Positions 9,364 through 26,843 are shown, numbered from the stretch's first letter. The stretch: 53,254 bases of DNA from a virus (IMGVR_UViG_2563366998_000011:1-53254); one strand, 5' to 3'. The notes: a model not told the origin generated them from the letters alone. Program-made: numbers and translations.

Positions 9364-9654
9364 ATGAGCGTTACAATTATATATGGTAAATGTGATAGCA
9401 AAATGAATGCCAGGGAACGCAGAAGGATAAAAAGAGAAAACGAAAGAAAATCATCACCTGCAATCAATAAAACAGACAATGTGGATAAAGCTATTCGATT
9501 TGCAAACGAGGAAAGATGCAAACCAAATAGCATTAAAGAACGTCGCAAAGGATCAGTAAAATGGTATACGGAAAATGAAAGCGGCAGCTACTACCACGCA
9601 ACGCAACCACGCCATTTAGGGGAAAAACCCCTGGATAAAGTCCGCTACCATTAA
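9364..9654 (+). CDS. N: N-like transcription antiterminator (P22 gene 24 type)
   Basis: 96 aa; N-terminus MSVTIIYGK...NARERRRIKRENERK parallels the P22 N start and arginine-rich motif as recalled; first gene after cI. Confidence 0.7.
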   Translation: MSVTIIYGKCDSKMNARERRRIKRENERKSSPAINKTDNVDKAIRFANEERCKPNSIKERRKGSVKWYTENESGSYYHATQPRHLGEKPLDKVRYH

Positions 9655-16604: not shown

Positions 16605-16764
16605 TGTTTACAAAATGGCGTCATTGTGTGATGCGGATCACATAATGGCGCTTTATTGTTTGTTCGCATGTATCCGTTTTGTATACTTCAAACAAACAAA
16701 ATGCTCTTTAAAAATCCGGTAACGCTGAAATGCGTAAAAATCACCTGAAAAAGGAGAGAGCATT

Positions 16765-16941
16765 ATGTCTTTTGAGAATTACCAATGGCATGACGACTAT
16801 GAACGGGAAAGTGTCATGCGTGCAATGTGCAGTGTATGCAGCACGAAGAAGGGAGAATGTAACGAGTGCAACGAATGCGTAGATCGCTTGCTAAGGGCTG
16901 GACACGCCGAAAGGCTGAACGAAACAGAGAATCAAGAATAA
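16765..16941 (+). CDS. Small Cys-rich (zinc-ribbon-like) protein, 58 aa
   Basis: MSFENYQWHDDYERE...CSVCSTKKGECNECNEC; AAAGGAGAGAG RBS; below track cutoff. Confidence 0.4.
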   Translation: MSFENYQWHDDYERESVMRAMCSVCSTKKGECNECNECVDRLLRAGHAERLNETENQE

Positions 16942-16956
16942 TCGGGGTGGTTTTTA

Positions 16957-17561
16957 TGCAAAACCCTAAGAAACCAATAAGACGCCGTTGCAAATGCTGC
17001 GGCGTTTTTTTTGAGCCTAAATATCACAATCAAACGTGGTGCAGCGATGAATGTCTGGAAGAACTGAAGTTTGACCAGCTATGCCGCGACCGTGAGAAGG
17101 CTATGAAGGCTATGGAGCGGAAGAAACGCCGTGATAGCCAGAGGGAAGAACGCAACCGGAAGCGTAAACAGTTAAATCCGCGTAGTTATTGGATCAAACA
17201 AGTTCAAAATGTATTTAACGCCTATATTCGCGAACGTGACGCGCGCTTGCCGTGTATATCTTGCGGGACTTACTACGGTGAGCAATGCGGGTGGGATGCA
17301 GGTCATTACAGGACGGTAGCCGCCGCCGGACACCTTCGCTTCAACGAGGATAATTGCCATAAGCAATGTAGGCACTGCAACCAGACACTAGACGGCAGCA
17401 TCGGAGGGTATCGCCCGGCACTGATTCGAAAAATTGGCCTCGCAAGGGTGGTAGCACTGGAAAACAACAATGATACGCATAAATGGACGATCGCAGAATG
17501 TAAGGAGCTAATAAACATCTATCAGGCGAAATTGGACGCCTTAAGGAGAAAGGCAGCATGA
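16957..17561 (+). CDS. ninG: NinG / Rap recombination protein
   Basis: ORF 16866..17561; likely start MQNPKKPIRRRCKCCG at 16957; NinG-type Cys clusters (CKCCG, CISCG, CRHCN) and FNAYIRERD motif; about 200 aa as lambda NinG. Confidence 0.8.
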
Positions 17562-17965
17562 ATGAATATACTTTTAGCCTGCCTTACCCGCCATCGAATA
17601 ACCGCTATTACCGACATTCACGGGGTTTTCACTATATCAGCGAAGTGGGGAAGGAATACCGGGAACAAGTAAAAGACATCATCGAATTATTAAATCTAGA
17701 CATTAACCTGTCTTGCCGACTGGCAATCGCCATTTATGCCGCGCCGCCTGATAACCGGACCAGGGATCTTGATAATATCCCTAAATGCCTATTTGACAGC
17801 CTTACTTATGCCGGATTTTGGAAAGATGATGGACAAATTGACTCAATAAAAATTGTCCGCTGCCGGAAGGTAAAAGGCGGACGCTTGTTTATTAAGATCC
17901 GCGAACGCGGCGACCTACTACCGGATATTGACGAATACGCGACTAATATGTGGGGTGAGCAATGA
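17558..17965 (+). CDS. rusA: Holliday junction resolvase RusA
   Basis: 135 aa; LPYPPSNNRYYRH and RDLDN motifs match E. coli RusA closely. Confidence 0.9.
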   Translation: MNEYTFSLPYPPSNNRYYRHSRGFHYISEVGKEYREQVKDIIELLNLDINLSCRLAIAIYAAPPDNRTRDLDNIPKCLFDSLTYAGFWKDDGQIDSIKIVRCRKVKGGRLFIKIRERGDLLPDIDEYATNMWGEQ

Positions 17966-18144
17966 AAAACGAAGTTAAAGATCTGCAAATAGATATTCAG
18001 CGCGATGAGCATGATTTAGCTACAGTCCGACAAATCCGGGCTTTTCATATGCGCGAATTGCTTGCATTGAAAGAGCTTGAGAAAAAGTTAGTCCAGTCTA
18101 TTTCTGATCGTAAACAACTTATTGCTCGTTACGGGGGGAAATAA
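17962..18144 (+). CDS. Hypothetical protein
   Basis: 60 aa ORF coupled to flanking genes. Confidence 0.35.
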   Translation: MKNEVKDLQIDIQRDEHDLATVRQIRAFHMRELLALKELEKKLVQSISDRKQLIARYGGK

Positions 18145-18866
18145 TGAATTTAGAATCCATTCTGAAATTCCACTTTCCCAAATCACCGCGATTATCAGAC
18201 GAAAGCCGGGGCACATCCCCGGATGCGCTTAATACGACTGATGCGCTAACCGCTGCAGGTATGGCGCAATCGCGCGTAGAGCTTGGTTACAGCGCTTTTT
18301 TAGGGAAGATGGAACTATCGCAAGCCGAAAAACACAGGGCCGTAGTTTTGCTTACAGAGCGTTTAAGAGCTATGGCAAAAGATTACGAATACGTCATGGA
18401 GCTGGACGAGGACAAACGCAATGATCTTATTATTCTTGTTGCCGTTTTCGCGTTTCGGGATTACTGCCAGAGTGCCGCGACAGAAAAAACTTGTATGGAT
18501 TGCGGCGGATATAAATTTACGTTTGACGACTACGGAGAAAAACACCTTTGCAAAAAATGCAAGGGGCATGGAAAAGTTCGCAATCATTGTAAACGATGCA
18601 AAGGGCGCGGCGAGATACCGGATAAAGCAGCCAGTGAAGCAGCGGAAATGCCAGTGTTCAAAACGTGCCAGCATTGCGGCGGGCGCGGGTACTCGCGTTT
18701 CCCTGTAGATCTTGTCCGGCGTGCGGTTAATCAGCTTGTATTTCCGGTAAGCCGATCAACATGGTGGAAAAAATACCGGGTTTTCTATGAAGACGCCATC
18801 GCTGAATTGTTCAAGGAAGAGGCGCGGGCTGATAACGAAATTAAACGAGTTACGCGGGGTGAATGA
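18144..18866 (+). CDS. Q-like late antiterminator candidate with four CxxCxGxG zinc-finger repeats
   Basis: 240 aa; directly downstream of rusA (Q position in nin region); CMDCGGYK, CKKCKGHG, CKRCKGRG, CQHCGGRG repeats; assignment by position and zinc-finger content only. Confidence 0.45.
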   Translation: MNLESILKFHFPKSPRLSDESRGTSPDALNTTDALTAAGMAQSRVELGYSAFLGKMELSQAEKHRAVVLLTERLRAMAKDYEYVMELDEDKRNDLIILVAVFAFRDYCQSAATEKTCMDCGGYKFTFDDYGEKHLCKKCKGHGKVRNHCKRCKGRGEIPDKAASEAAEMPVFKTCQHCGGRGYSRFPVDLVRRAVNQLVFPVSRSTWWKKYRVFYEDAIAELFKEEARADNEIKRVTRGE

Positions 18867-19069
18867 TGGATAAACTGGAAATAAACGATCAGTTTGCCGT
18901 TATCTTGTTCGAAGATAAAACAGGCGGCGCATGGTGTAAGAAAGTCACTGGTGCTGAAGCACGCTTAATATTGGGTATGGCAAGCGCGTTAAATGATGGC
19001 GAATTGCCAGCCGTGCCAATTAAGCCAGTACATATTTACGGACGGAGTAACGACAATGAAAATACTTAA
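18863..19069 (+). CDS. Hypothetical protein
   Basis: 68 aa ORF, ATGATGG overlap with upstream stop. Confidence 0.4.
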   Translation: MMDKLEINDQFAVILFEDKTGGAWCKKVTGAEARLILGMASALNDGELPAVPIKPVHIYGRSNDNENT

Positions 19070-19403
19070 CATTGGGTGGCTGTATTGCGAAAACTGCGAC
19101 GACGATGGCATGGTCGTAAAAACCGAAAAAGGTTGCGGCCTCATGCTGTATCAAGGTGATAAATTCGTTTGTCCTCGCTGCGGCGGCGGTGGTGAGATAG
19201 AAATTGTTAATGATATTGCTACAGCATATAAGCCATCTCGCATTGCCCTTGATGAAAAAATAAAAATTCATCCTTATTTATTACAGCAAATTATCGATCA
19301 CGTATCGGCAGCCGCAATCTATAGCGGTAACAATTATCAGCGAGAAATGAACGTCAAACGTGCGATTGAGCAGTATTTCGAAGGTGACGACAATGAAGCC
19401 TAA
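19056..19403 (+). CDS. Hypothetical zinc-finger protein
   Basis: start MKILNIG at 19056 with GGAG RBS; CENC...CPRCGGGG. Confidence 0.45.
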   Translation: MKILNIGWLYCENCDDDGMVVKTEKGCGLMLYQGDKFVCPRCGGGGEIEIVNDIATAYKPSRIALDEKIKIHPYLLQQIIDHVSAAAIYSGNNYQREMNVKRAIEQYFEGDDNEA

Positions 19404-19662
19404 ATTAAAAGAGCATGAATTTAGGGATCTCATAAACGGAATAACCGATAAAGCTAGGATGTACTCAAATGCGCAACAGTTAAGGGCGGTTATAGTTACG
19501 GAATTAATGAAATACATTGAGCCATGCGGACCAGGCGACGAAATGACTATGGATAAGGCCATCAAGCGCCGTTCGGCTGATTGGTCGGTTAGTAACACTG
19601 GATTAACCGGATACATTGAAGGCTATAACGACTGTTTACAGGATCATGGCAATGAAAAGTAA
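19393..19662 (+). CDS. Hypothetical protein
   Basis: ORF 19360..19662, ATG at 19393. Confidence 0.4.
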   Translation: MKPKLKEHEFRDLINGITDKARMYSNAQQLRAVIVTELMKYIEPCGPGDEMTMDKAIKRRSADWSVSNTGLTGYIEGYNDCLQDHGNEK

Positions 19663-19867
19663 CCGCAAGCGCCTTGTAAGGGCATACGATAAAGCATTAA
19701 AGGCTTTTGATGATCTGCGACACAATAAGCGCCAGCGCCGCAAATGGGCGCGTATGCTTGTTTATGAGTGGCATTATTCTGATGCTTTCATGGAAAGTGC
19801 GCCGCTATTAACACAGGAACAAGCCGACGAAGTAGCTAACGATAACGTTTATTATATGATGTGGTGA
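19646..19867 (+). CDS. Hypothetical basic protein
   Basis: ORF 19616..19867, ATG at 19646. Confidence 0.4.
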   Translation: MAMKSNRKRLVRAYDKALKAFDDLRHNKRQRRKWARMLVYEWHYSDAFMESAPLLTQEQADEVANDNVYYMMW

Positions 19868-19871
19868 TAAT

Positions 19872-20237
19872 ATGCAAATAATCATTGATTATCTTTGCCA
19901 TGCTGCAAATACGCTTTTTGGTTTTTATCAACAACCATTCCTCAAAGAATGGGACGAAATGCTTAATGACATCATTGATAAAGGGTTAATAGTTGAGGTT
20001 GGCGAGCTAACGATAAAATTTAATTACGAAGGCAAAGAATATGATATATGGGTAGGTAACAGATGGTACGCATACGGGCATATTTATTCAATTGGCGGCA
20101 AATACATTAAACGTAGCCAGGAGTTCAGGCCGCGATTCCGCACAATGCGCCGCCTGCGTGACCTGCATATGAATATATTTGAAAATCAGGAAGCGTGTGA
20201 ACTATTCAAAATCTACGGAGATAAATCATGGAACTAA
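19872..20237 (+). CDS. Hypothetical protein
   Basis: 121 aa ORF. Confidence 0.45.
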   Translation: MQIIIDYLCHAANTLFGFYQQPFLKEWDEMLNDIIDKGLIVEVGELTIKFNYEGKEYDIWVGNRWYAYGHIYSIGGKYIKRSQEFRPRFRTMRRLRDLHMNIFENQEACELFKIYGDKSWN

Positions 20238-20458
20238 AAATCTGGCAGGGTATCGACGTAGTTGATAATGAATTGTCTATGTTCGCCACTAACGGGAAAC
20301 GCGTGGTGATCGCTACATGGACGCGCAACCATGATGATATAGCTTTTCGTCGCAAGGCTGCGGAGTGGCTTTTCTCTGATGAAGGCTACACGATGAATAT
20401 CTCCCAGCTTGCCAGAATGAAGGATGAAAAGCTGGTTGATAGTTACACAACTGCATAG
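20228..20458 (+). CDS. Hypothetical protein
   Basis: 76 aa ORF. Confidence 0.4.
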   Translation: MELKIWQGIDVVDNELSMFATNGKRVVIATWTRNHDDIAFRRKAAEWLFSDEGYTMNISQLARMKDEKLVDSYTTA

Positions 20459-20468
20459 TGGGGCAAAT

Positions 20469-20702
20469 ATGTGTATCTATGAACACAAGCGGGATAAAAC
20501 CCGCTTTTTTGTTCGTGCTGGCGTGGCTTACCAGTATCACGACTGCGGATATATCGAGGCGCTTGCTTACGATCTGGACTTCGAACAAGAAAAAGAATGG
20601 TTCGATTTCAAAATTTACCGGAAGCGTAAACCGACGCGCGACGAGCGACACGCTATCCGGGACTTTTTAATCAGCATAGACCGCTGGGAGACAGAGGAAT
20701 GA
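20469..20702 (+). CDS. Hypothetical protein
   Basis: ORF 20424..20702, ATG at 20469. Confidence 0.4.
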   Translation: MCIYEHKRDKTRFFVRAGVAYQYHDCGYIEALAYDLDFEQEKEWFDFKIYRKRKPTRDERHAIRDFLISIDRWETEE

Positions 20703-20986
20703 GAGCGAAGAAAACAGCAGATCAGAAAGCGTTAGTTATCACTACAACTGATGTGTCGTTATTCACGAAGGGTGAAGAAATAGATCTTAAATTACTTTTC
20801 GGCATGTTTGAGCCACACGAAAAGCCGTGGTTCGTGCATGAAGACAAACAGGGAAATATGCGCGTAGTAGTGCCGGACAAAAACAGCGACATATTTTTTG
20901 CTATTCCAGACCCGTTACATGACGGTGAATTGCTGGCGGTATTGTTGATCGCTGATGCTGTTACTTATAAAGGGAAAGAAATATGA
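20699..20986 (+). CDS. Hypothetical protein
   Basis: 95 aa ORF. Confidence 0.4.
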   Translation: MRAKKTADQKALVITTTDVSLFTKGEEIDLKLLFGMFEPHEKPWFVHEDKQGNMRVVVPDKNSDIFFAIPDPLHDGELLAVLLIADAVTYKGKEI

Positions 20987-21210
20987 AAGTTAAATTCTTG
21001 CACGATCACGGCTACCCATCATTAAAACGCGTGGTAGGGGAAACGGTAGACGTTGTTCATTCTGATGATGTGACCTGCGTCATTTTGGGTAAAGACCTTA
21101 TCGCTCACGGTGCTGATGATTACTACATTAACCCGGCGTGGTCATATACGTTTAGCCTGGGCGACTTCGTAGGCGATAAGGGGCGCGGCTTGCAAGTAGT
21201 CGAGGGTTAA
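20983..21210 (+). CDS. Hypothetical protein
   Basis: 75 aa ORF. Confidence 0.4.
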   Translation: MKVKFLHDHGYPSLKRVVGETVDVVHSDDVTCVILGKDLIAHGADDYYINPAWSYTFSLGDFVGDKGRGLQVVEG

Positions 21211-21214
21211 TATC

Positions 21215-21463
21215 ATGGACGTTTACGAAGATTTATACCTTCAAACAAATACCAGCACTTTTTATTTTTTGAAAAACGGCGTCGTATATCGCAGCGACAA
21301 CGGGGTGATAATGAAAGAGTGTTTATTTAAGCGTAAAGACCTACTCGAAGATCTGGTTTTTGCCGGGATATTTCGTAAACGTCCGGCTAACCTGGAAGAA
21401 GAAATGTTGATTGAGGTTATTAAACATGAAAATCAGGGTAAGTTATTTCCGGGCGAAAGATAA
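21215..21463 (+). CDS. Hypothetical protein
   Basis: 82 aa ORF. Confidence 0.4.
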   Translation: MDVYEDLYLQTNTSTFYFLKNGVVYRSDNGVIMKECLFKRKDLLEDLVFAGIFRKRPANLEEEMLIEVIKHENQGKLFPGER

Positions 21464-21677
21464 GGCAACAGGAAAGCGGATGGCGATCCTGGTTAATGAA
21501 GCTAATTATATGTTTGTGCTTCAGCCGTGGTGCATAGCTGACTATAACGATGATTATCGCCGTCACGGTGCGCGGGGTGCTGTAGGGATGAAGGGATGGC
21601 AACCGCGTGACATGGAAAACTATTGTGAATGGAAATTGATAGCAAAATATACGGTCGATTATAAAGGTGTTTTCTAA
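21426..21677 (+). CDS. Hypothetical protein
   Basis: ORF 21411..21677, ATG at 21426. Confidence 0.4.
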   Translation: MKIRVSYFRAKDKATGKRMAILVNEANYMFVLQPWCIADYNDDYRRHGARGAVGMKGWQPRDMENYCEWKLIAKYTVDYKGVF

Positions 21678-21883
21678 TGTACGTCAGATGCACTGAATCA
21701 AAATCATCATGCTTTGAGGTTGGCGGAATATATACCGTAGATCACCTGACTGGTGATGAACTTAACACCCAATACATTAAAGACGACCTCGGCGACGCGT
21801 GGCGCTATTGGGATTGCTACGCGCGTGGACACGTTACCAGTCAGTTTGGTACGGAACCGATCGCGCGTTTTGTTAAGTGGTGA
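21677..21883 (+). CDS. Hypothetical protein
   Basis: 68 aa ORF. Confidence 0.4.
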   Translation: MYVRCTESKSSCFEVGGIYTVDHLTGDELNTQYIKDDLGDAWRYWDCYARGHVTSQFGTEPIARFVKW

Positions 21884-21997
21884 GGCGTTGGACAACCATA
21901 AATGTGATCTGTATCACAATGTATACGAAATGGCATTGTTTCGACAGTGCCATTTTGTTATATATAAGCCACGGAAAGACGGAGGGGAGGCAAGAAG

Positions 21998-22138
21998 ATG
22001 AGCGCTAACGCTAAATATCCGGCATGGGTTTTTGAGTTATACGCCCGCTACTTTGAATTGCTGGCACAAGGTGAAGAAGCATTAAGCATTGACGAGTACG
22101 CGGAGTGCTTAGGGTTTAAAGGAGACGAAGAAGCATAA
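21998..22138 (+). CDS. Small hypothetical protein (46 aa)
   Basis: GGAGGGGAGG RBS then ATG at 21998; below track cutoff. Confidence 0.35.
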   Translation: MSANAKYPAWVFELYARYFELLAQGEEALSIDEYAECLGFKGDEEA

Positions 22139-22181
22139 AACACGGGGCCGGATGGCCCCATCAAATCAGAAGGGTGTAATC

Positions 22182-22475
22182 ATGAAAAGCGCTAAATTTA
22201 TTGCTTGCTGTTTTGTTGAAGTTCCCTATAACGATGCGTTCTATCACGCTACTTTTACCGATAAGAATGGGAATGATCACGTTATTGTCGGCAAGCGTGG
22301 TGACTGGCTTTATATAACTGATGATGATTGCATTTTCACTAAAAATCAGTTGCAAAAACTGGTTATCGGTAAACAGGAACAGGAAGGCTATCAAATCATC
22401 CCGGTGGAAAGACTGAAAAGGGAGCAGAGAATTAAACGCGCTCAAGAGGAATTAAATAACATAAAGGGTATGTGA
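22182..22475 (+). CDS. Hypothetical protein
   Basis: ORF 22152..22475, ATG at 22182. Confidence 0.4.
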   Translation: MKSAKFIACCFVEVPYNDAFYHATFTDKNGNDHVIVGKRGDWLYITDDDCIFTKNQLQKLVIGKQEQEGYQIIPVERLKREQRIKRAQEELNNIKGM

Positions 22476-22476
22476 T

Positions 22477-22731
22477 ATGAAAACAATCAGACTATGGCGC
22501 GGCAATAGCCGACTTGATGGTGAGTACATCCGCGTGATTGAAGATGTTAATCGTGGTCGGTTTTATGAATTGGCATACAGCGAAAAAAGGGAGAAAGAAT
22601 ATCTGAACGAATCGACCCCTATGTGGCGTAAAGTGGCTGGCCTTGCCTCAATTCTGCGCCACGGGTTTTATGCAGATCATAACACGCTAATTGATGCCGA
22701 ACTGGTGACAACTCTTTACGAAGGAGAATAA
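22477..22731 (+). CDS. Hypothetical protein
   Basis: 84 aa ORF. Confidence 0.4.
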   Translation: MKTIRLWRGNSRLDGEYIRVIEDVNRGRFYELAYSEKREKEYLNESTPMWRKVAGLASILRHGFYADHNTLIDAELVTTLYEGE

Positions 22732-22734
22732 ACA

Positions 22735-23058
22735 ATGAGTAAATTTATCAGCGTTAAGGTTTTCCGTGGCAATTTTCCAGAAGATAAAGAAATTGGACAA
22801 TTCGCAGGTGAACGTGGCGTATGTTTCCGTGTAGCTACTGAAGACGATGCGCACGTTAAATGCTTTCACGTATCTGAACCGCCTTTTAATGCAGACCATC
22901 TTGAAGACCTGAATAGAATTAAAAGCCTTATTTTTGCCTATCTGGCGTTCCCTGGCATAGCTGATGCTGATGTTGAATTGGTTGGGGCCGAACTGGTGGC
23001 AGAATACAAAATGACTGAAGGCGAAAACGGAGGGGTGGAAATTGAGCGCATCAAATAA
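22735..23058 (+). CDS. Hypothetical protein
   Basis: 107 aa ORF. Confidence 0.4.
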   Translation: MSKFISVKVFRGNFPEDKEIGQFAGERGVCFRVATEDDAHVKCFHVSEPPFNADHLEDLNRIKSLIFAYLAFPGIADADVELVGAELVAEYKMTEGENGGVEIERIK

Positions 23059-23293
23059 GCTGTATAAAGTCAGGTGTAAAGGCGAATACCCTGGCTTTAC
23101 GGTTGGTTGCGAATATCTGGGCCACATTGGGTACGGCCCTTTCGGTGAGTTGGGAATGAATACGATTGACGACGACGGCGACAGCAGGACGCTTGATCTT
23201 GATAGCGATGATTTCGAATACATCCCGCCAGTCACTTACCGCGTCGTCGATGATTTCCTGGCTGAACATGAAGACGAGGATGATGATGATTGA
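23042..23293 (+). CDS. Hypothetical acidic protein
   Basis: 83 aa; C-terminal EHEDEDDDD. Confidence 0.4.
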   Translation: MSASNKLYKVRCKGEYPGFTVGCEYLGHIGYGPFGELGMNTIDDDGDSRTLDLDSDDFEYIPPVTYRVVDDFLAEHEDEDDDD

Positions 23294-23480
23294 ATGCCTT
23301 ATCGCTGTGATTGTTTTGCTTTATATCGCTGGCGCGATCCTGATGTCATGTTTTATTAAGTTTAGCGGCGCTGAACCTGGTGGCCTTGAGATTCCTTTTT
23401 GGCCTGTGACTGTGTTTATCGCTTTCTTCGACGCTACGGCAGAGCAGATCAATCGAGCTATTAAGGAGCGCAAGAAATGA
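23286..23480 (+). CDS. Small membrane protein
   Basis: ORF 23166..23480; ATG cluster at 23280-23286; two hydrophobic helices. Confidence 0.4.
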   Translation: MIECLIAVIVLLYIAGAILMSCFIKFSGAEPGGLEIPFWPVTVFIAFFDATAEQINRAIKERKK

Positions 23481-23656
23481 TTGAAGATGGGGTGTACGCA
23501 ACAGTAGTAGACGGGCTGTTTTACCGCGTAGAAGGTGATGATATTCGCATCCGCGTTGGCGGTGGTGAGTGGGTAGCGCCAATCATTAAGACGACGCGAG
23601 AAACAATTAAAATATTTCTTGATGCTGGTGAACTGGTGAGGGTTAGCGACCTATGA
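23477..23656 (+). CDS. Hypothetical protein (59 aa)
   Basis: MIEDGVYATVVDG...; paralogous N-terminus with next gene. Confidence 0.35.
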   Translation: MIEDGVYATVVDGLFYRVEGDDIRIRVGGGEWVAPIIKTTRETIKIFLDAGELVRVSDL

Positions 23657-23829
23657 ACGAGATCGAAGATGGTATCTATTTACATAAGGTATTTAACATC
23701 GTCTATTTGGTTAGAGGTGAATCGGTGATGATAAGACCTGATGATGATCCTTATTGGGAATTAAGCGACATGGATCGGTGGCATATGCAAACATTGCTTG
23801 ATAATGGCCTGATATATAGAAAGCCGTAA
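23653..23829 (+). CDS. Hypothetical protein (58 aa)
   Basis: MNEIEDGIYLHK...; shares IEDG(V/I)Y start with previous gene. Confidence 0.35.
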   Translation: MNEIEDGIYLHKVFNIVYLVRGESVMIRPDDDPYWELSDMDRWHMQTLLDNGLIYRKP

Positions 23830-23851
23830 AGCCGTATTTGTTGGGGGGAAT

Positions 23852-24079
23852 ATGGAAGAAATGGTTTTACTGTCATCAATATGGCATCGGTTCGGAACTG
23901 AAAAAGGATACTCACCTGCTTGCTGGCTGGATAGTAAAAGCGGAAAGGAGTATCAAAACGAGTGCGAATTTAGAAGGGAGTGGCGAGGTGGTAAGGAAGT
24001 GCAAGGATATTTTGCACCAAAACACGTTGCCGCCAAATACAAAGAATGGCTTGTGCGTTTGCTTGGCCCTTATCGTTAA
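23852..24079 (+). CDS. Hypothetical protein
   Basis: 75 aa ORF flanked by 15-bp direct repeats TAAAGCCGTATTTGT. Confidence 0.4.
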   Translation: MEEMVLLSSIWHRFGTEKGYSPACWLDSKSGKEYQNECEFRREWRGGKEVQGYFAPKHVAAKYKEWLVRLLGPYR

Positions 24080-24087
24080 AGCCGTAT

Positions 24088-24116
24088 TTGTAGGGCGTAA
24101 ACAAACAGATTAAAAT
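24088..24116 (+). promoter_or_regulatory. Candidate late promoter (pR'-like)
   Basis: TTGTAG, 17-bp spacer, TAAAAT; upstream of tR'-like terminator and lysis cassette. Confidence 0.3.
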
Positions 24117-24144
24117 ATTCTCTAACAATGCGAAACTGTAACTA

Positions 24145-24172
24145 CCCGGCCCAGCGCCGGGTTTTTGCTTTG
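24145..24172 (+). terminator. tR'-like intrinsic terminator immediately upstream of the holin gene
   Basis: hairpin CCCGGC-CCAGC-GCCGGG followed by TTTTTGCTTTG; 15 nt before holin RBS. Confidence 0.55.
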
Positions 24173-24186
24173 TTGGAGGTAAATCT

Positions 24187-24387
24187 ATGTTCGACAAAAT
24201 ACGGGCGGCGTGCGCTTATGTAACAGGGACCGTAACCGCTTTTTTTGGTGCGATAACCATTAATGACGTTGCCGTCTTTGTGGGTATCTTATCAACCATT
24301 GGCACATTTGCCGTTAACTATTACTTCAAATCACAGGAGAACAAGCGAGCGCAAGAGGAACACGACGCACGAATGGGGAATAAGTAA
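24187..24387 (+). CDS. Holin, pinholin-like (phage 21 S type)
   Basis: 66 aa; two TM segments then YFK and charged tail; GGAGG RBS; directly precedes SAR endolysin. Confidence 0.7.
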
Positions 24388-24388
24388 C

Positions 24389-24880
24389 ATGATTAGCCAA
24401 TCGCTAAAGAATAAAATTATTGCTGCGGCGGCTGGTGGGGCTATCGCTATTGCGGCTGTGATGGTTAAACCATTGGAAGGCGTGGAATATGATCCTTATC
24501 GTGATGTTGTCGGTGTATGGACTGTTTGCCACGGTCACACCGGAAAGGACATCATGCTTGGTAAGACTTACACGCAATTTGAATGCGATGCTTTGTTGAA
24601 CAAAGATCTACACAAAACCGCAAAAGCGATTGACCCATATATCAAAGTCGAAATATCAGATTTTACCCGCGCAGCACTTTATTCATTCGCCTATAACGTA
24701 GGCGCAACCAACTTCAAAACATCAACCTTATTAAAGCTACTTAATGACGGCAAGAAATCGGAAGCGTGCGCACAGCTTAAACGCTGGGTATACGCTGGCG
24801 GTAAGAAGTGGCAAGGCCTGGTTAACCGCCGTGATATTGAATATGCCGTTTGCGAATGGGGTGAAACATGGACAAGGTGA
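24389..24880 (+). CDS. R: SAR endolysin (lysozyme, phage 21 R type)
   Basis: ORF 24263..24880, ATG at 24389; N-terminal signal-anchor-release segment [15 protein letters not shown]; [33 protein letters not shown] matches phage 21 lysozyme as recalled. Confidence 0.9.
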
Positions 24881-25338
24881 AGACGTTAATCATCGCCGTT
24901 GTTGTTTGCATTATTGCCGGGCTTACCGCCGTAACGTGTTATTACCAGGGTGAGGCGGCAAGGTTACAGGAAGAAGTCACGGTGACGAAAGGCGCACTAA
25001 AAACAGCAAGTAACACTATCCAGCAGATGAAGGAGCGAAACGCCGAACTGTCAAAACTTGATAAGAGGTATCACGATGAGATTAAAGCTATCAGATCTGA
25101 CATTGCCGATCTTCGCGCTGGCATTGATAGCGGTGCTATCAGGTTGCACGTCAACGCCGAGCCAGTGTACGTGCACGACGCCACCGGAACCGCCAGCAGC
25201 ATTAATGGAGCCACCTGTAGACTTACTGCCAGTGCTCAATCAAATTATCTATCCCTCAGAGAACAACTAAAAGAGAAAGACGCGAAGATCACCGGATTAC
25301 AGGACTACATCAAAACGCAGTGCATACGCAAAGAATAA
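24868..25338 (+). CDS. Rz: Rz-like inner-membrane spanin
   Basis: 156 aa; N-terminal TM helix then coiled-coil periplasmic domain; follows endolysin. Confidence 0.8.
25076..25270 (+). CDS. Rz1: Rz1-like outer-membrane lipoprotein spanin embedded in Rz
   Basis: ORF 25058..25270 in alternate frame inside Rz; start MRLKLSDL at 25076 with AAGAGG; lipobox LSGC; Pro-rich. Confidence 0.75.
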   Translation: MRLKLSDLTLPIFALALIAVLSGCTSTPSQCTCTTPPEPPAALMEPPVDLLPVLNQIIYPSENN

Positions 25339-25606: not shown

Positions 25607-26179
25607 ATGGCTAAGGCTAAAGGCATTAAGTTGCCTCAATTCAAAGTCCCGCTCTTTGAGCATACAACCGTTTTCTTTTGCCCGACCCGCGAGATGTTCT
25701 ATGAATTTTGCGAAAAGGCCGGAATACCAATCGAACCTGATTTCGAACTAGCTGGCGGTCTGACGTTAACCTGTACTGGTGAGACCGGCGGTAATTTCTA
25801 CGTGATCGCAGTATTCAACAATGAGACTGGAACGCTGGTCCATGAATGCGCTCACACTACATTCCACGTTTTAAGTGATGTAGGCGTCGTGGCGACCACT
25901 GATCCTACTCATCCTGCGAATGAGACTTACGCTTACATGGTTGGACGTATCTTTGACGCATTCTTCCCAATCCTGGCTGAATCAAACGAAGCACAGATCA
26001 CAGCGATGCAGGCGGCTGAAGTCGTTGAGCAGGCGTTAGAAAAGGCAGAGCAGGCGACTGATGCAGCAGAACAGGCAGAGGAGCCGAAAGAAGAGAAAAA
26101 ACCAGCTAAGAAAGGCAAACGTAAGCCGAAAGCAAAAGAGGCGCTTGTACCGCGCGTTATGAGCTTTAAGAGAGGGTAA
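25607..26179 (+). CDS. Hypothetical protein with HExxH motif and Lys-rich tail
   Basis: 190 aa; VHECAHTTFH (HExxH); C-terminal KEEKKPAKKGKRKPKAK. Confidence 0.5.
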   Translation: MAKAKGIKLPQFKVPLFEHTTVFFCPTREMFYEFCEKAGIPIEPDFELAGGLTLTCTGETGGNFYVIAVFNNETGTLVHECAHTTFHVLSDVGVVATTDPTHPANETYAYMVGRIFDAFFPILAESNEAQITAMQAAEVVEQALEKAEQATDAAEQAEEPKEEKKPAKKGKRKPKAKEALVPRVMSFKRG

Positions 26180-26181
26180 TT

Positions 26182-26250
26182 ATGTTTACTTTTCTGTTAG
26201 GCGTATTTGTTGGCATAGCTGCCGCTGTGATCTTGATATACGGACATTGA
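26182..26250 (+). CDS. Mini-ORF a (22 aa) hydrophobic peptide
   Basis: MFTFLLGVFVGIAAAVILIYGH; AGAGGG RBS 6 nt upstream. Confidence 0.4.
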   Translation: MFTFLLGVFVGIAAAVILIYGH

Positions 26251-26254
26251 TATT

Positions 26255-26359
26255 ATGGATGCTTACATCATCGCCGGATTAATCGGCGTTTCTGTGTTTC
26301 TTGTGGGTTCTATTATAGTTGCGCTGATAAACGTATATATCAAGTATTTGGTGGGGTGA
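26255..26359 (+). CDS. Mini-ORF b (34 aa) hydrophobic peptide
   Basis: MDAYIIAGLIGVSVFLVGSIIVALINVYIKYLVG. Confidence 0.4.
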   Translation: MDAYIIAGLIGVSVFLVGSIIVALINVYIKYLVG

Positions 26360-26364
26360 AAAAT

Positions 26365-26439
26365 ATGATTGACCCGCTAATTATCCTTTCTGCCTGCGTC
26401 GCTGTATGGCTGGCGATCATGATATTCATTGAAAGCTGA
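26365..26439 (+). CDS. Mini-ORF c (24 aa) hydrophobic peptide
   Basis: MIDPLIILSACVAVWLAIMIFIES. Confidence 0.4.
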   Translation: MIDPLIILSACVAVWLAIMIFIES

Positions 26440-26450
26440 AGGTATCCACA

Positions 26451-26531
26451 ATGAACGCATACGAAATGCTATTGCTGGTGGCTGTTATTACAGTTATTGC
26501 CGTAGATGTTTATCGGGAGTTTAAAAAATGA
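26451..26531 (+). CDS. Mini-ORF d (26 aa) hydrophobic peptide
   Basis: MNAYEMLLLVAVITVIAVDVYREFKK; stop overlaps next start (ATGA). Confidence 0.4.
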   Translation: MNAYEMLLLVAVITVIAVDVYREFKK

Positions 26532-26596
26532 AATGGCTTGATTTCTTTTTCCTGATCGTTGCGATTGTTCTCACTATGACAGCGCTTGCTCAATAG
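26528..26596 (+). CDS. Mini-ORF e (22 aa) hydrophobic peptide
   Basis: MKWLDFFFLIVAIVLTMTALAQ. Confidence 0.4.
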   Translation: MKWLDFFFLIVAIVLTMTALAQ

Positions 26597-26604
26597 GTGA
26601 AAGC

Positions 26605-26679
26605 ATGAACGCTATTGATATTATGTTGATCGTGTGTACCGTTGCATTAGTTATTATTGGGGTGATTATCAATGTCTGA
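26605..26679 (+). CDS. Mini-ORF f (24 aa) hydrophobic peptide
   Basis: MNAIDIMLIVCTVALVIIGVIINV; AGGTGA RBS. Confidence 0.4.
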   Translation: MNAIDIMLIVCTVALVIIGVIINV

Positions 26680-26740
26680 TGGTGATTTCTTAATCATGGC
26701 TATATGCACGCTGTTAACTGTTATTGTTTTCTTCGCGTAA
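26672..26740 (+). CDS. Mini-ORF g (22 aa) hydrophobic peptide
   Basis: MSDGDFLIMAICTLLTVIVFFA; overlaps ORF f by 8 nt. Confidence 0.35.
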   Translation: MSDGDFLIMAICTLLTVIVFFA

Positions 26741-26749
26741 AGGTAAACA

Positions 26750-26833
26750 ATGAAAGAATTATTCGATTGGTTGGAAGTATTAACATACTGTGCAAGTTTT
26801 GTTGCTTGCGTATATATCATCAATAAATATTGA
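26750..26833 (+). CDS. Mini-ORF h (27 aa) hydrophobic peptide
   Basis: MKELFDWLEVLTYCASFVACVYIINKY; AAGGT RBS. Confidence 0.4.
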   Translation: MKELFDWLEVLTYCASFVACVYIINKY

Positions 26834-26843
26834 GAGGTGAATT

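Follow-up and report, generated by a model that had tools for sequence, protein, structure and literature searches.

Organization of the locus

The DNA analyzed here is a viral stretch of 53,254 nucleotides (IMGVR_UViG_2563366998_000011:1-53254), which as a whole will be called the window, and the subject of this report is the late gene switch that it carries, namely, a gene for the antiterminator Q at positions 18144-18866, a block of 21 small genes at 18863-24079, and a late control element at 24088-24167 that precedes the lysis genes. All of these are on the + strand, which carries every gene from about 9.3 to 24.1 kb, and the uninterrupted gene run continues past 25 kb. From the stop codon of Q to the late element there are 5,241 bp, in which the 21 open reading frames (ORFs) lie. 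An original prediction, made from the sequence alone, had placed about 21 tightly coupled small ORFs of 46-121 amino acids (aa) after a Q-like gene, and a late-promoter-like element with a terminator near 24.1 kb and not beside Q. Both were found, the former as exactly 21 ORFs of that size and the latter as a signature that is unique in the window.

This phage belongs to the mEpimmI (mEp021-like) group, which has been published in PMC11893012. The region is 86-90% identical in DNA sequence to mEp021, mEp010, mEp013, mEp044, mEp515, and mEp554 and also to phage MagusPhagus; the best-matching group phage is 88% identical over 77% of the region, and the window is identical to none of them. Among 5,426 complete E. 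coli genomes, 35 have prophages that match the region, and in one IMG/VR contig, L011, both the Q protein and the spacing from Q to the late element are the same as in the window. According to PMC11893012, mEpimmI phages and lambdoid phages are equally prevalent in human feces.

Homology of the 240-aa protein to lambda Q over its full length

The ORF at 18144-18866 on the + strand codes for a protein of 240 aa that had been described as Q-like, and this description understates the result because the protein is a full-length lambda Q homologue and a member of the Q-lambda family. In profile searches against Q families it matched phrog_127 ("anti-termination protein Q-like") end to end at 7e-79 and PF03589, the Pfam Q-lambda family, with 102.3 bits against a cut-off of 26.7. 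In the PDB it matched lambda Q (7ubm_Q) at E=3e-39 with residues 1-122 and 148-238 covered, so it is to the Q-lambda family and not to a non-Q family that the protein belongs. It is 40% identical to lambda Q and 93% identical to mEp021_37. An AlphaFold2 (AF2) model with a predicted local distance difference test score (pLDDT) of 79 gave significant PDB matches to Q-lambda structures only (E 6e-15, template modeling score 0.78-0.81, target-normalised), and residues 1-30 are predicted to be disordered, likewise in lambda Q. It has been described that in lambda Q residues 1-44, V6 and G39 included, form a torus that together with NusA narrows the RNA exit channel, while the helix-turn-helix (HTH) body consists of residues 61-113 and 153-207 and the zinc-ribbon arm of residues 114-152 (PMC9388147). 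Residues 1-60 of the 240-aa protein align to lambda Q without a gap, with G39 kept and V6 conservatively replaced by Ile, and the N-terminal segment is preserved at almost every position. The presence of Q and of the small ORFs was counted in 39 relatives, and Q is kept in all of them at 83-100% identity.

The zinc-ribbon arm of this Q is enlarged. It had been claimed that the protein has four CxxCxGxG repeats of the DnaJ type, and this stands for the most part. There are four CxxC motifs (C117MDCGG, C136KKCKGHG, C149KRCKGRG, and C175QHCGGRG), the last three being perfect CxxCxGxG repeats and the first one CxxCGG only. What does not stand is the relation to DnaJ. PF00684 scored 26.0 bits, which is below its cut-off of 32.7, and a DnaJ homologue was therefore rejected; the cysteine repeats belong to the Q-lambda arm and the likeness to DnaJ is at the level of the motif only. 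C149, C152, C175, and C178 align with the two Zn-binding CxxC pairs of lambda Q, the spacing of 22 residues being equal in both, and ahead of them lie 33 extra residues that carry the other two CxxC motifs, that is, an extra CxxC pair relative to lambda Q. When 24 long-arm Q homologues of 240-283 aa were aligned, all eight cysteines of the four CxxC motifs were invariant. Such homologues occur in Escherichia, Citrobacter, Pantoea, Pectobacterium, Xenorhabdus, and Serratia, and many of them bear a precomputed match to PF00684 (DnaJ CXXCXGXG). In long-arm Q proteins of other Enterobacterales prophages the segment from the first to the second CxxC is up to about 65 residues long compared to 15 in the window Q. 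Judging from these alignments, the doubled CxxC arm is common in the Q-lambda family and not peculiar to the phage in the window, and lambda Q is the short-armed form.

The late control element at 24.1 kb

The late control element consists, in order, of TTGTAG, 17 nt that include AAACAAACAGAT, TAAAAT, ATTCTCT, AACAAT, 14 nt, the hairpin ACCCGGC-CCAGC-GCCGGGT, and TTTTT, and the start codon of the holin gene is 20 nt 3' of the terminator of the element. TTGTAG at 24088-24093 is a -35-like hexamer that matches at 3/6 positions, is 17 nt from the -10 hexamer, and lacks conservation among family members. AAACAAACAGAT at 24099-24110, which lies between the two hexamers, is a candidate Q-binding element because its position matches that of the Q-binding element (QBE) of lambda (PMC9388147). 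The family consensus at this place, AAACAAAYRGAT, is invariant in 38 of 40 family loci, and the other two, L027 and L038, have one substitution each. The -10 hexamer TAAAAT (24111-24116) is invariant in all 40 loci and is laid out as is TAAATT in lambda PR'. AACAAT at 24124-24129, which would be at about +1 to +6 and is also found in 40/40 loci, is predicted to be a -10-like sigma-dependent pause element; in lambda PR' this element is AACGAT. The distance from the -10 to the pause-like element is 7 nt in the window and 6 nt in lambda and in a sister lineage described below. The intrinsic terminator at 24144-24167 is tR'-like and is the equivalent of TERM_5 of mEp021; its stem core, CCCGGC/GCCGGG, is the same in all 40 loci, and most changes fall in the loop.

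Between AAACAAA and the ATG of the holin gene, 40 related genomes hardly differ, and such changes as there are fall mainly in the loop of the terminator and at a small number of sites in the leader. As non-coding DNA the element is as conserved as the flanking genes (92% versus 88-92%), and since it is no more conserved than these coding flanks we do not claim exceptional conservation for it. A separate observation on the predicted late leader, 24124-24142, is that family variants with T at 24136 can form a small hairpin, ACAAU-GCGAA-AUUGU, with a GNRA-like pentaloop, the stem of which has one mismatch in the window sequence.

A composite signature consisting of a -10 hexamer, 6-7 nt, AAYRMT, and a terminator within 70 nt was searched for on both strands and occurred once in the 53-kb window. 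The 37-nt conserved motif was also unique in the window and was not matched in any of 100 shuffles. The possibility of another Q target in the window was rejected, both searches having returned the 24.1-kb site alone. By its layout, then, the element at 24088-24167 is a lambda-PR'-type unit and the sole one in the window.

The split layout among relatives

In the 40 family loci the distance from the Q stop to the late element ranges from 1,924 to 7,060 bp with a median of 5,530 bp, and the conserved element is always immediately 5' of the holin gene, whatever the length of the block. Among 33 IMG/VR loci of the mEpimmI type, 30 have an ORF after Q that overlaps its stop codon; in one of the other three a gap of 30 bp is left, and in the remaining two, L026 and L028, a deletion has led to a gap of 92 bp. 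A promoter right after Q in these two loci was rejected because the gap is the deletion joint between ORF 1 and ORF 4 of the block.

In 47 other loci of the Q-lambda family, which have the 207-aa lambda-like and the 254-274-aa forms of Q, a non-coding gap of 35-669 bp follows Q. In nine of the 13 such cassettes that were read, all of them distant relatives, the first 110 bp or so after the Q stop contain a -10 hexamer, 6-7 nt, AAC(G/A)(A/C)T, and a nearby terminator. Examples are TAATCT-CACGCC-AACGAT and TAGTTT-TCATCT-AACGAT, and L045 has the near variant AATGAT. In IMG/VR phages with a Q of 254-274 aa the non-coding gap is 35-649 bp, and a PR'-like unit is inside it in most of those read.

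A sister lineage, in which Q is 49% identical to the window Q, is split as well. It has TATAAT-TCCCTC-AATAAT and a terminator before an HP1-type holin gene, and the distance from Q to this element is about 3.0 kb with 11-13 genes between. The lineage is made up of L091-L093 (Logan assemblies SRR23253395, SRR16327189, and ERR9714990), which are about 53 kb long and have the order NinG-RusA-61 aa-Q; one gene of its block codes for a 179-aa HAD/PNKP-type phosphatase-like protein, and its lysis cassette is followed by an ASCH-domain gene. On the comparison of these genomes, the split Q layout is a trait of the whole mEpimmI group plus the sister lineage and not of one genome.

The probable early right operon and a model for the late switch

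Upstream of Q, a 96-aa homologue of the N-like early antiterminator Gp17 is encoded at 9364-9654 on the + strand and is 93% identical to mEp021_17; the function of Gp17 and the nut sites are described for the mEpimmI group in PMC11893012. A terminator-like hairpin at 16617-16652, 3' of the methyltransferase genes, is the counterpart of TERM_4 of mEp021. Just 3' of it and 5' of ninF we read a nutR2-like site at 16702-16736, with a boxA-like sequence, TGCTCTTTAA, at 16702-16711 and a boxB-like hairpin, ACGC-TGAAAT-GCGT, at 16723-16736. We infer that this is nutR2, and its position agrees with nutR2 of the group map (PMC11893012). Then follow the genes for NinG (16866-17561; PF05766, 1.9e-65) and the RusA Holliday-junction resolvase (17558-17965; PF05866, 7e-16) and a 60-aa ORF (17962-18144; phrog_18514, "unknown function") that is present in 39/39 relatives and whose stop overlaps the start of Q.

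The Q stop overlaps the start codon of the next ORF, which is the first of the block. Gaps between the ORFs of the block range from -38 to +43 nt, except for one of 114 nt at 21884-21997, and after Q there are two gaps above 45 nt, this one and 24080-24186. Promoter-like matches in the block were not above chance (17 found versus 21 +/- 3.8 expected). There are, in addition, three hairpins in the block. An intrinsic-terminator-like hairpin with a T-run, AAGCGGG-ATAAAA-CCCGCTT, lies at 20487-20516, 18 nt into ORF 7, and is kept in nearly all relatives. Third codon positions within it vary at 4/10 sites versus 51/68 elsewhere in ORF 7 (Fisher p=0.056), and one relative has a compensatory change from GCGGG/CCCGC to GCGCG/CGCGC. 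The second hairpin is in the one large gap of the block, at 21927-21965, and is terminator-like with a 12-bp stem, a UUCG loop, and a U-rich tail. Its fold has a z of -3.5, it is found in 31 of 42 loci with variation mainly in the loop, and in mEp554 a terminator was predicted by ARNold at the equivalent position. The third, ACGGGGCC-GGAT-GGCCCCAT at 22142-22161, is GC-rich, has no U-tract on the + strand, was scored on the - strand, and occurs in 23/42 loci. The second and third hairpins flank the 46-aa ORF 13 and could be terminators, processing sites, or recombination joints. Because the block is co-oriented with Q, translationally abutted to it, and 3' of nutR2, and because it has no promoter signal above chance and has conserved terminator-like hairpins inside, we infer that it is the distal end of the early right operon.

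We propose that the late switch of this phage is a lambda-type Q cassette whose two parts have become separated, with Q acting in trans at a distant site, and we would give this reading a probability of about 0.7. According to this model the early right operon would run from pR through the Gp17 gene and nutR2 to ninF-ninG-rusA-Q and on into the 21-gene block, the expression of which would depend on processive antitermination by the N-like Gp17. The conserved terminator-like hairpins would be tolerated in the block because polymerase antiterminated by Gp17 would ignore them. Q would accumulate from the upstream early transcript. At the late element, RNA polymerase would start at about 24124 and pause through the binding of sigma70 to AACAAT, and Q would bind the conserved AAACAAAYRGAT segment in trans and be loaded together with NusA onto the paused complex. 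The polymerase thus modified would pass the terminator at 24144-24167 into the lysis and morphogenesis/structural genes. Since the predicted Q site at 24.1 kb is beyond the block, the 21 small genes would not be late genes.

Several points weigh against this proposal. The start site, the pause, the Q dependence, and the timing of the block are deduced from sequence. The -35 is weak and variable, one promoter type of the family having TCGCGC there, and a simple sigma70 consensus scan did not list the 24.1-kb site; for these reasons the strength of the promoter and the exact start point are uncertain. The AAACAAAYRGAT segment does not clearly resemble the lambda QBE, and the 240-aa Q differs from lambda Q in the residues of the recognition helix. 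Selection on the hairpin within ORF 7 is borderline at the p value given above and with one compensatory event. Finally, PMC11893012 states that a terminator 't5' was experimentally shown, and this terminator is tied to the one before the holin gene solely by the GenBank label TERM_5.

The small genes of the block

The starts of the small ORFs were adjusted to the limits of their PHROG matches and to the annotation of relatives. When relatives were compared, the substitutions in every small ORF were found to cluster at the third position of the codon (the first, second, and third positions having, for example, 16/7/136 and 54/8/106 differences), and therefore these are real, expressed, and selected genes and not chance ORFs. 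All of them are on the + strand. Five are core, being present in 39/39 relatives at 82-95% median identity (starts 20228, 20469, 20983, 21215, and 21426). These are ORF 6 (76 aa, 20228-20458, phrog_38280), ORF 7 (77 aa, 20469-20702), which is the most conserved of the block at 91-100% identity and to which the differences of 16/7/136 belong, ORF 9 (75 aa, 20983-21210, phrog_5009), ORF 10 (82 aa, 21215-21463), which is the homologue of mEp021 gp41 and is 91% identical to mEp021_41, and ORF 11 (83 aa, 21426-21677, phrog_38609). ORF 5 (121 aa, 19872-20237, phrog_16975) is nearly core, being present in 38/39 relatives, and the flexible ORF 8 (95 aa, 20699-20986, 21/39, phrog_33175) is inserted among the core five, which are otherwise contiguous. 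The other flexible ORFs on the Q side are ORF 1 (68 aa, 18863-19069, 36/39, phrog_35000), ORF 2 (115 aa, 19056-19403, 19/39), ORF 3 (89 aa, 19393-19662, 33/39, phrog_29262), and ORF 4 (73 aa, 19646-19867, 36/39, phrog_8758). After the core come ORF 12 (68 aa, 21677-21883, 14/39, phrog_31142), ORF 13 (46 aa, 21998-22138, 25/39, phrog_22232), ORF 14 (97 aa, 22182-22475, 22/39), which has no PHROG or Pfam family, ORF 15 (84 aa, 22477-22731, 25/39, phrog_32200), ORF 16 (107 aa, 22735-23058, 36/39, phrog_23107), ORF 17 (83 aa, 23042-23293, 33/39, phrog_25234), which has an acidic C-terminus, and ORF 18 (65 aa, 23283-23480, 34/39, phrog_10061), all of them flexible.

That the small ORFs lack recognizable motifs, as had been stated, is nearly right, the exceptions being ORFs 2 and 18. 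ORF 2 has a zinc-ribbon-like motif, CxxC...CxxCGGGG, with a weak match to DnaJ_CXXCXGXG (E=0.009); it was considered as a duplicate of the zinc arm of Q and rejected, the likeness being at the level of the CxxCxGxG motif only. ORF 18 is mostly hydrophobic and, from a reading of its translation, is probably a membrane protein. ORF 19 (59 aa, 23477-23656) and ORF 20 (58 aa, 23653-23829) had been called paralogues and indeed are, with 30% identity at E=1e-5 and matches of both to phrog_15318 at about 1e-32.

ORF 21 (75 aa, 23852-24079, phrog_23715), which is just 5' of the late element, is flexible and rare, being present in 6/39 relatives. It is found over its full stretch at the same spot in 10 E. 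coli genomes, is absent from the six phages of PMC11893012, and had no match in the phage collection searched. On either side of it we read a 15-bp direct repeat, TAAAGCCGTATTTGT, the first copy at 23827-23841 and the second at 24077-24091, where it overlaps the -35-like hexamer. That these repeats bracket ORF 21 suggests that it was inserted as a cassette by recombination at a boundary sequence.

Beyond the late element, the first late gene codes for an HP1-family class II holin (24187-24387; PF16080, 4.5e-16) and is followed by the genes for a phage lysozyme (24389-24880; PF00959, 3.6e-43), with its start taken from the annotation of relatives, and for an Rz-like spanin or lysis protein (24868-25338), named from the annotation of relatives, all on the + strand. 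Inside the Rz-like gene in another frame, the ORF at 25058-25270 has a signal peptide and a lipobox (LSGC) and looks like an Rz1-type o-spanin. Farther on, within 25607-26843, there is a 190-aa ORF (phrog_1365, unknown function) with a Lys/Glu/Ala-rich C-terminus and then a terminator-like hairpin at 26272-26288, and about 660 bp without a convincing ORF before the small terminase gene (26844) may be a cos or packaging region.

Possible functions of the block

It had been remarked that anti-defense genes tend to accumulate in blocks of this type in temperate phages, although nothing in the sequence marked any of these ORFs as such a gene. A reading of this kind would be that it is an early-expressed anti-defense or host-takeover island with inhibitors of restriction, CRISPR, or abortive infection; this is a statement about function and is compatible with the transcriptional model proposed above. 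Its products are all small and are placed in what would be the early operon. The presence of 16 of the 21 ORFs varies from 6 to 38 of 39 relatives, the length of the block spans 1.9-7.1 kb, and ORF 21 lies between direct repeats as in a recent cassette insertion, all of which would suit such an island. From this pattern the block appears to be in part core, with five genes and one nearly core, and in part flexible cargo exchanged by recombination. The homologues outside the group point in the same direction, being typical of horizontally traded accessory genes. ORF 9 has homologues with less than 60% identity (42-45% in the matches shown) in 119 phage records outside the group, and among the matches listed these are 130-140-kb rV5-like virulent E. 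coli myoviruses. Some of the 137-kb records bear the name 'Campylobacter phage', apparently in error. Homologues of ORF 4 that are 47-51% identical occur, also outside the group, in Salmonella phages of the Sasha/Sergei/Solent type and in Escherichia vB_EcoS_PJ16, PDP46, and vB_VIPECOTH07. Therefore, some genes of the block circulate among unrelated enterobacterial phages.

The searches for function speak against an anti-defense island. The 21 ORFs gave no Pfam family at E<=0.1 except for chance-level matches, in the PHROGs scan every match was to a family of "unknown function", and the PADLOC scan gave one chance-level match only (E=0.015, 12 bits). Thus, no anti-defense family was matched in these three scans, which did not include a dedicated anti-defense library. 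PHROGs v4 has anti-restriction and anti-CRISPR categories, and Pfam has families of the Ocr/ArdA/Acr type. In RefSeq (PGAP) the homologues of the block are named "hypothetical protein". The strict conservation of the five core ORFs in 39/39 relatives fits phage-intrinsic functions better than arms-race cargo; conserved core genes they are, but the scans tied none of them to a known function. In addition, one core product has been found in virions, the homologue of ORF 10, mEp021 gp41, being reported there by mass spectrometry (PMC11893012). Homologues of ORF 10 were found only in E. coli, at least 65% identical, and its AF2 model, the single structure tried, is of low confidence (pLDDT 61) and gave no PDB fold match, the best being at E=0.56. 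A RegA-like or RNA-binding function for ORF 10, a PLMSearch suggestion in PMC11893012, found no support in these results. Taken together, we consider it unlikely that the block is an anti-defense or host-takeover island, and the original prediction on this point has found no support from Pfam, PHROGs of known function, or PADLOC. The flexible ORFs may have an anti-defense role, which is unlikely for the five core ORFs.

A bolder and still less likely view is that the whole family reserves the DNA between Q and PR' for accessory genes that are expressed early. The flexible ORFs would then include new inhibitors of host defense or physiology, and the five conserved proteins would be new parts of the machinery that turns the phage from early to late expression and might, for example, modulate Q, Gp17, or host RNA polymerase. 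If true, this would account for the separation of Q from its target in every member of the group and in the sister lineage.

Other explanations of the late element

It could be argued that the block is late and is transcribed from an unrecognized Q-dependent promoter located where Q ends or where the block begins, the 24.1-kb element being an internal attenuator or a secondary promoter. Accessory genes of Stx and other lambdoid phages, the morons, do sit 3' of PR' and are transcribed late, polymerase modified by Q would read through the internal terminator-like hairpins equally well, and late expression would suit a core product that, according to PMC11893012, is virion-associated. However, there is no non-coding space after Q, the overlap of the next ORF with the Q stop being the rule in the family loci (30/33), and no second -10/pause/terminator signature was found anywhere in the window. 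Moreover, the element stays directly before the holin gene regardless of block length, and an element of like shape is right after Q in nine of the 13 other cassettes of the Q-lambda family that were read. We therefore regard a late block as improbable. Equally improbable is that the 24.1-kb element is the terminator of the early operon joined to a constitutive or otherwise regulated lysis promoter, with Q acting elsewhere or being dispensable and the late genes expressed by Gp17 read-through; the poor and variable -35, the ability of N-type antitermination to pass downstream terminators, as in lambda, and the fact that Q is tied to the 24.1-kb site by sequence reading would allow this, but Q, its torus-forming N-terminus included, would hardly then be kept at 83-100% identity in all 39 relatives, and a plain terminator would not need an AACAAT that is invariant at a fixed distance from the -10 and that is at the position occupied by the pause element of lambda, the sister lineage, and most of the other cassettes that were read.

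Comparison with known systems

The canonical Q cassette consists of the Q gene and an adjacent transcription unit and is found at 'equivalent positions' in phage genomes (PMC9388147). In the window the unit is not directly 3' of Q, whereas a -10 hexamer, a pause-like element, and a terminator are found, as in the canonical cassette, 5' of the late genes. Lambda PR' reads TTGACT, 17 nt with the QBE region, TAAATT, TGACTC, and AACGAT, and the grammar of the window is alike, with TAAAAT, AACAAT, and an intrinsic terminator 5' of the lysis genes. Lambda Q, with structures 4MO1 and 7UBJ-7UBN, and the window Q are homologous end to end in the torus segment, the HTH body, the zinc ribbon, and the fold. 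The differences lie in the arrangement and in the details of the site. The lambda cassette is adjacent, whereas in the window 5.24 kb and 21 genes are between (1.9-7.1 kb across the family). The terminator starts about 20 nt from the predicted start in the window compared to about 150 nt into the lambda transcript. Unlike lambda, the window has no TTGACT-like element beside the pause element, its -35 is weak, and the spacer sequence at the QBE position is unrelated.

Within the mEpimmI phages the synteny is shared, in the order methyltransferases, nutR2, ninF, ninG, rusA, the 60-aa ORF, Q, small ORFs, terminator, HP1-type holin, and lysozyme, and mEp021_37 is already annotated as 'putative late gene regulator Q'. 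The set of flexible ORFs differs from that of the window, the block of mEp021 being of 8 genes only. The text of PMC11893012, in the part searched, treats Gp17 and the nut sites and has nothing on the site of action of Q or on the block. Genomes with the split layout are thus already public, and it appears that the arrangement has not been pointed out previously. For the annotation of mEpimmI-like phages it follows that the late promoter should be sought before the holin gene and not after Q. The block, with its five core and about 16 exchangeable small genes, is a reasonable source of candidates for functional screens.

Runs of short ORFs that lie between the replication and lysis genes, are for the most part dispensable, and are exchanged horizontally are known from the lambda nin region and from the moron blocks of Stx phages. 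The nin genes of lambda are 5' of Q and the Stx morons are 3' of PR' and late, whereas the run in the window is between Q and PR' and for this reason would be expressed early. For a q gene set apart from the late genes there is a precedent. In the telomere phages N15, phiKO2, and PY54, a putative q gene is in the immB region beside cB/cro (PMC4997575). There q is away from the late operon that it is thought to control, although these are linear plasmid prophages and q is only a putative antiterminator. Q is known to act in trans, and older genetics has indicated a partial cis-preference of lambda Q; the split group is therefore a natural test of whether the proximity of Q to PR' matters. Given the precedent in the telomere phages and the action of Q in trans, the split is a modest surprise and not a new principle. 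It reveals no new mechanism, and we see the split cassette as an unusual variant of the textbook switch.

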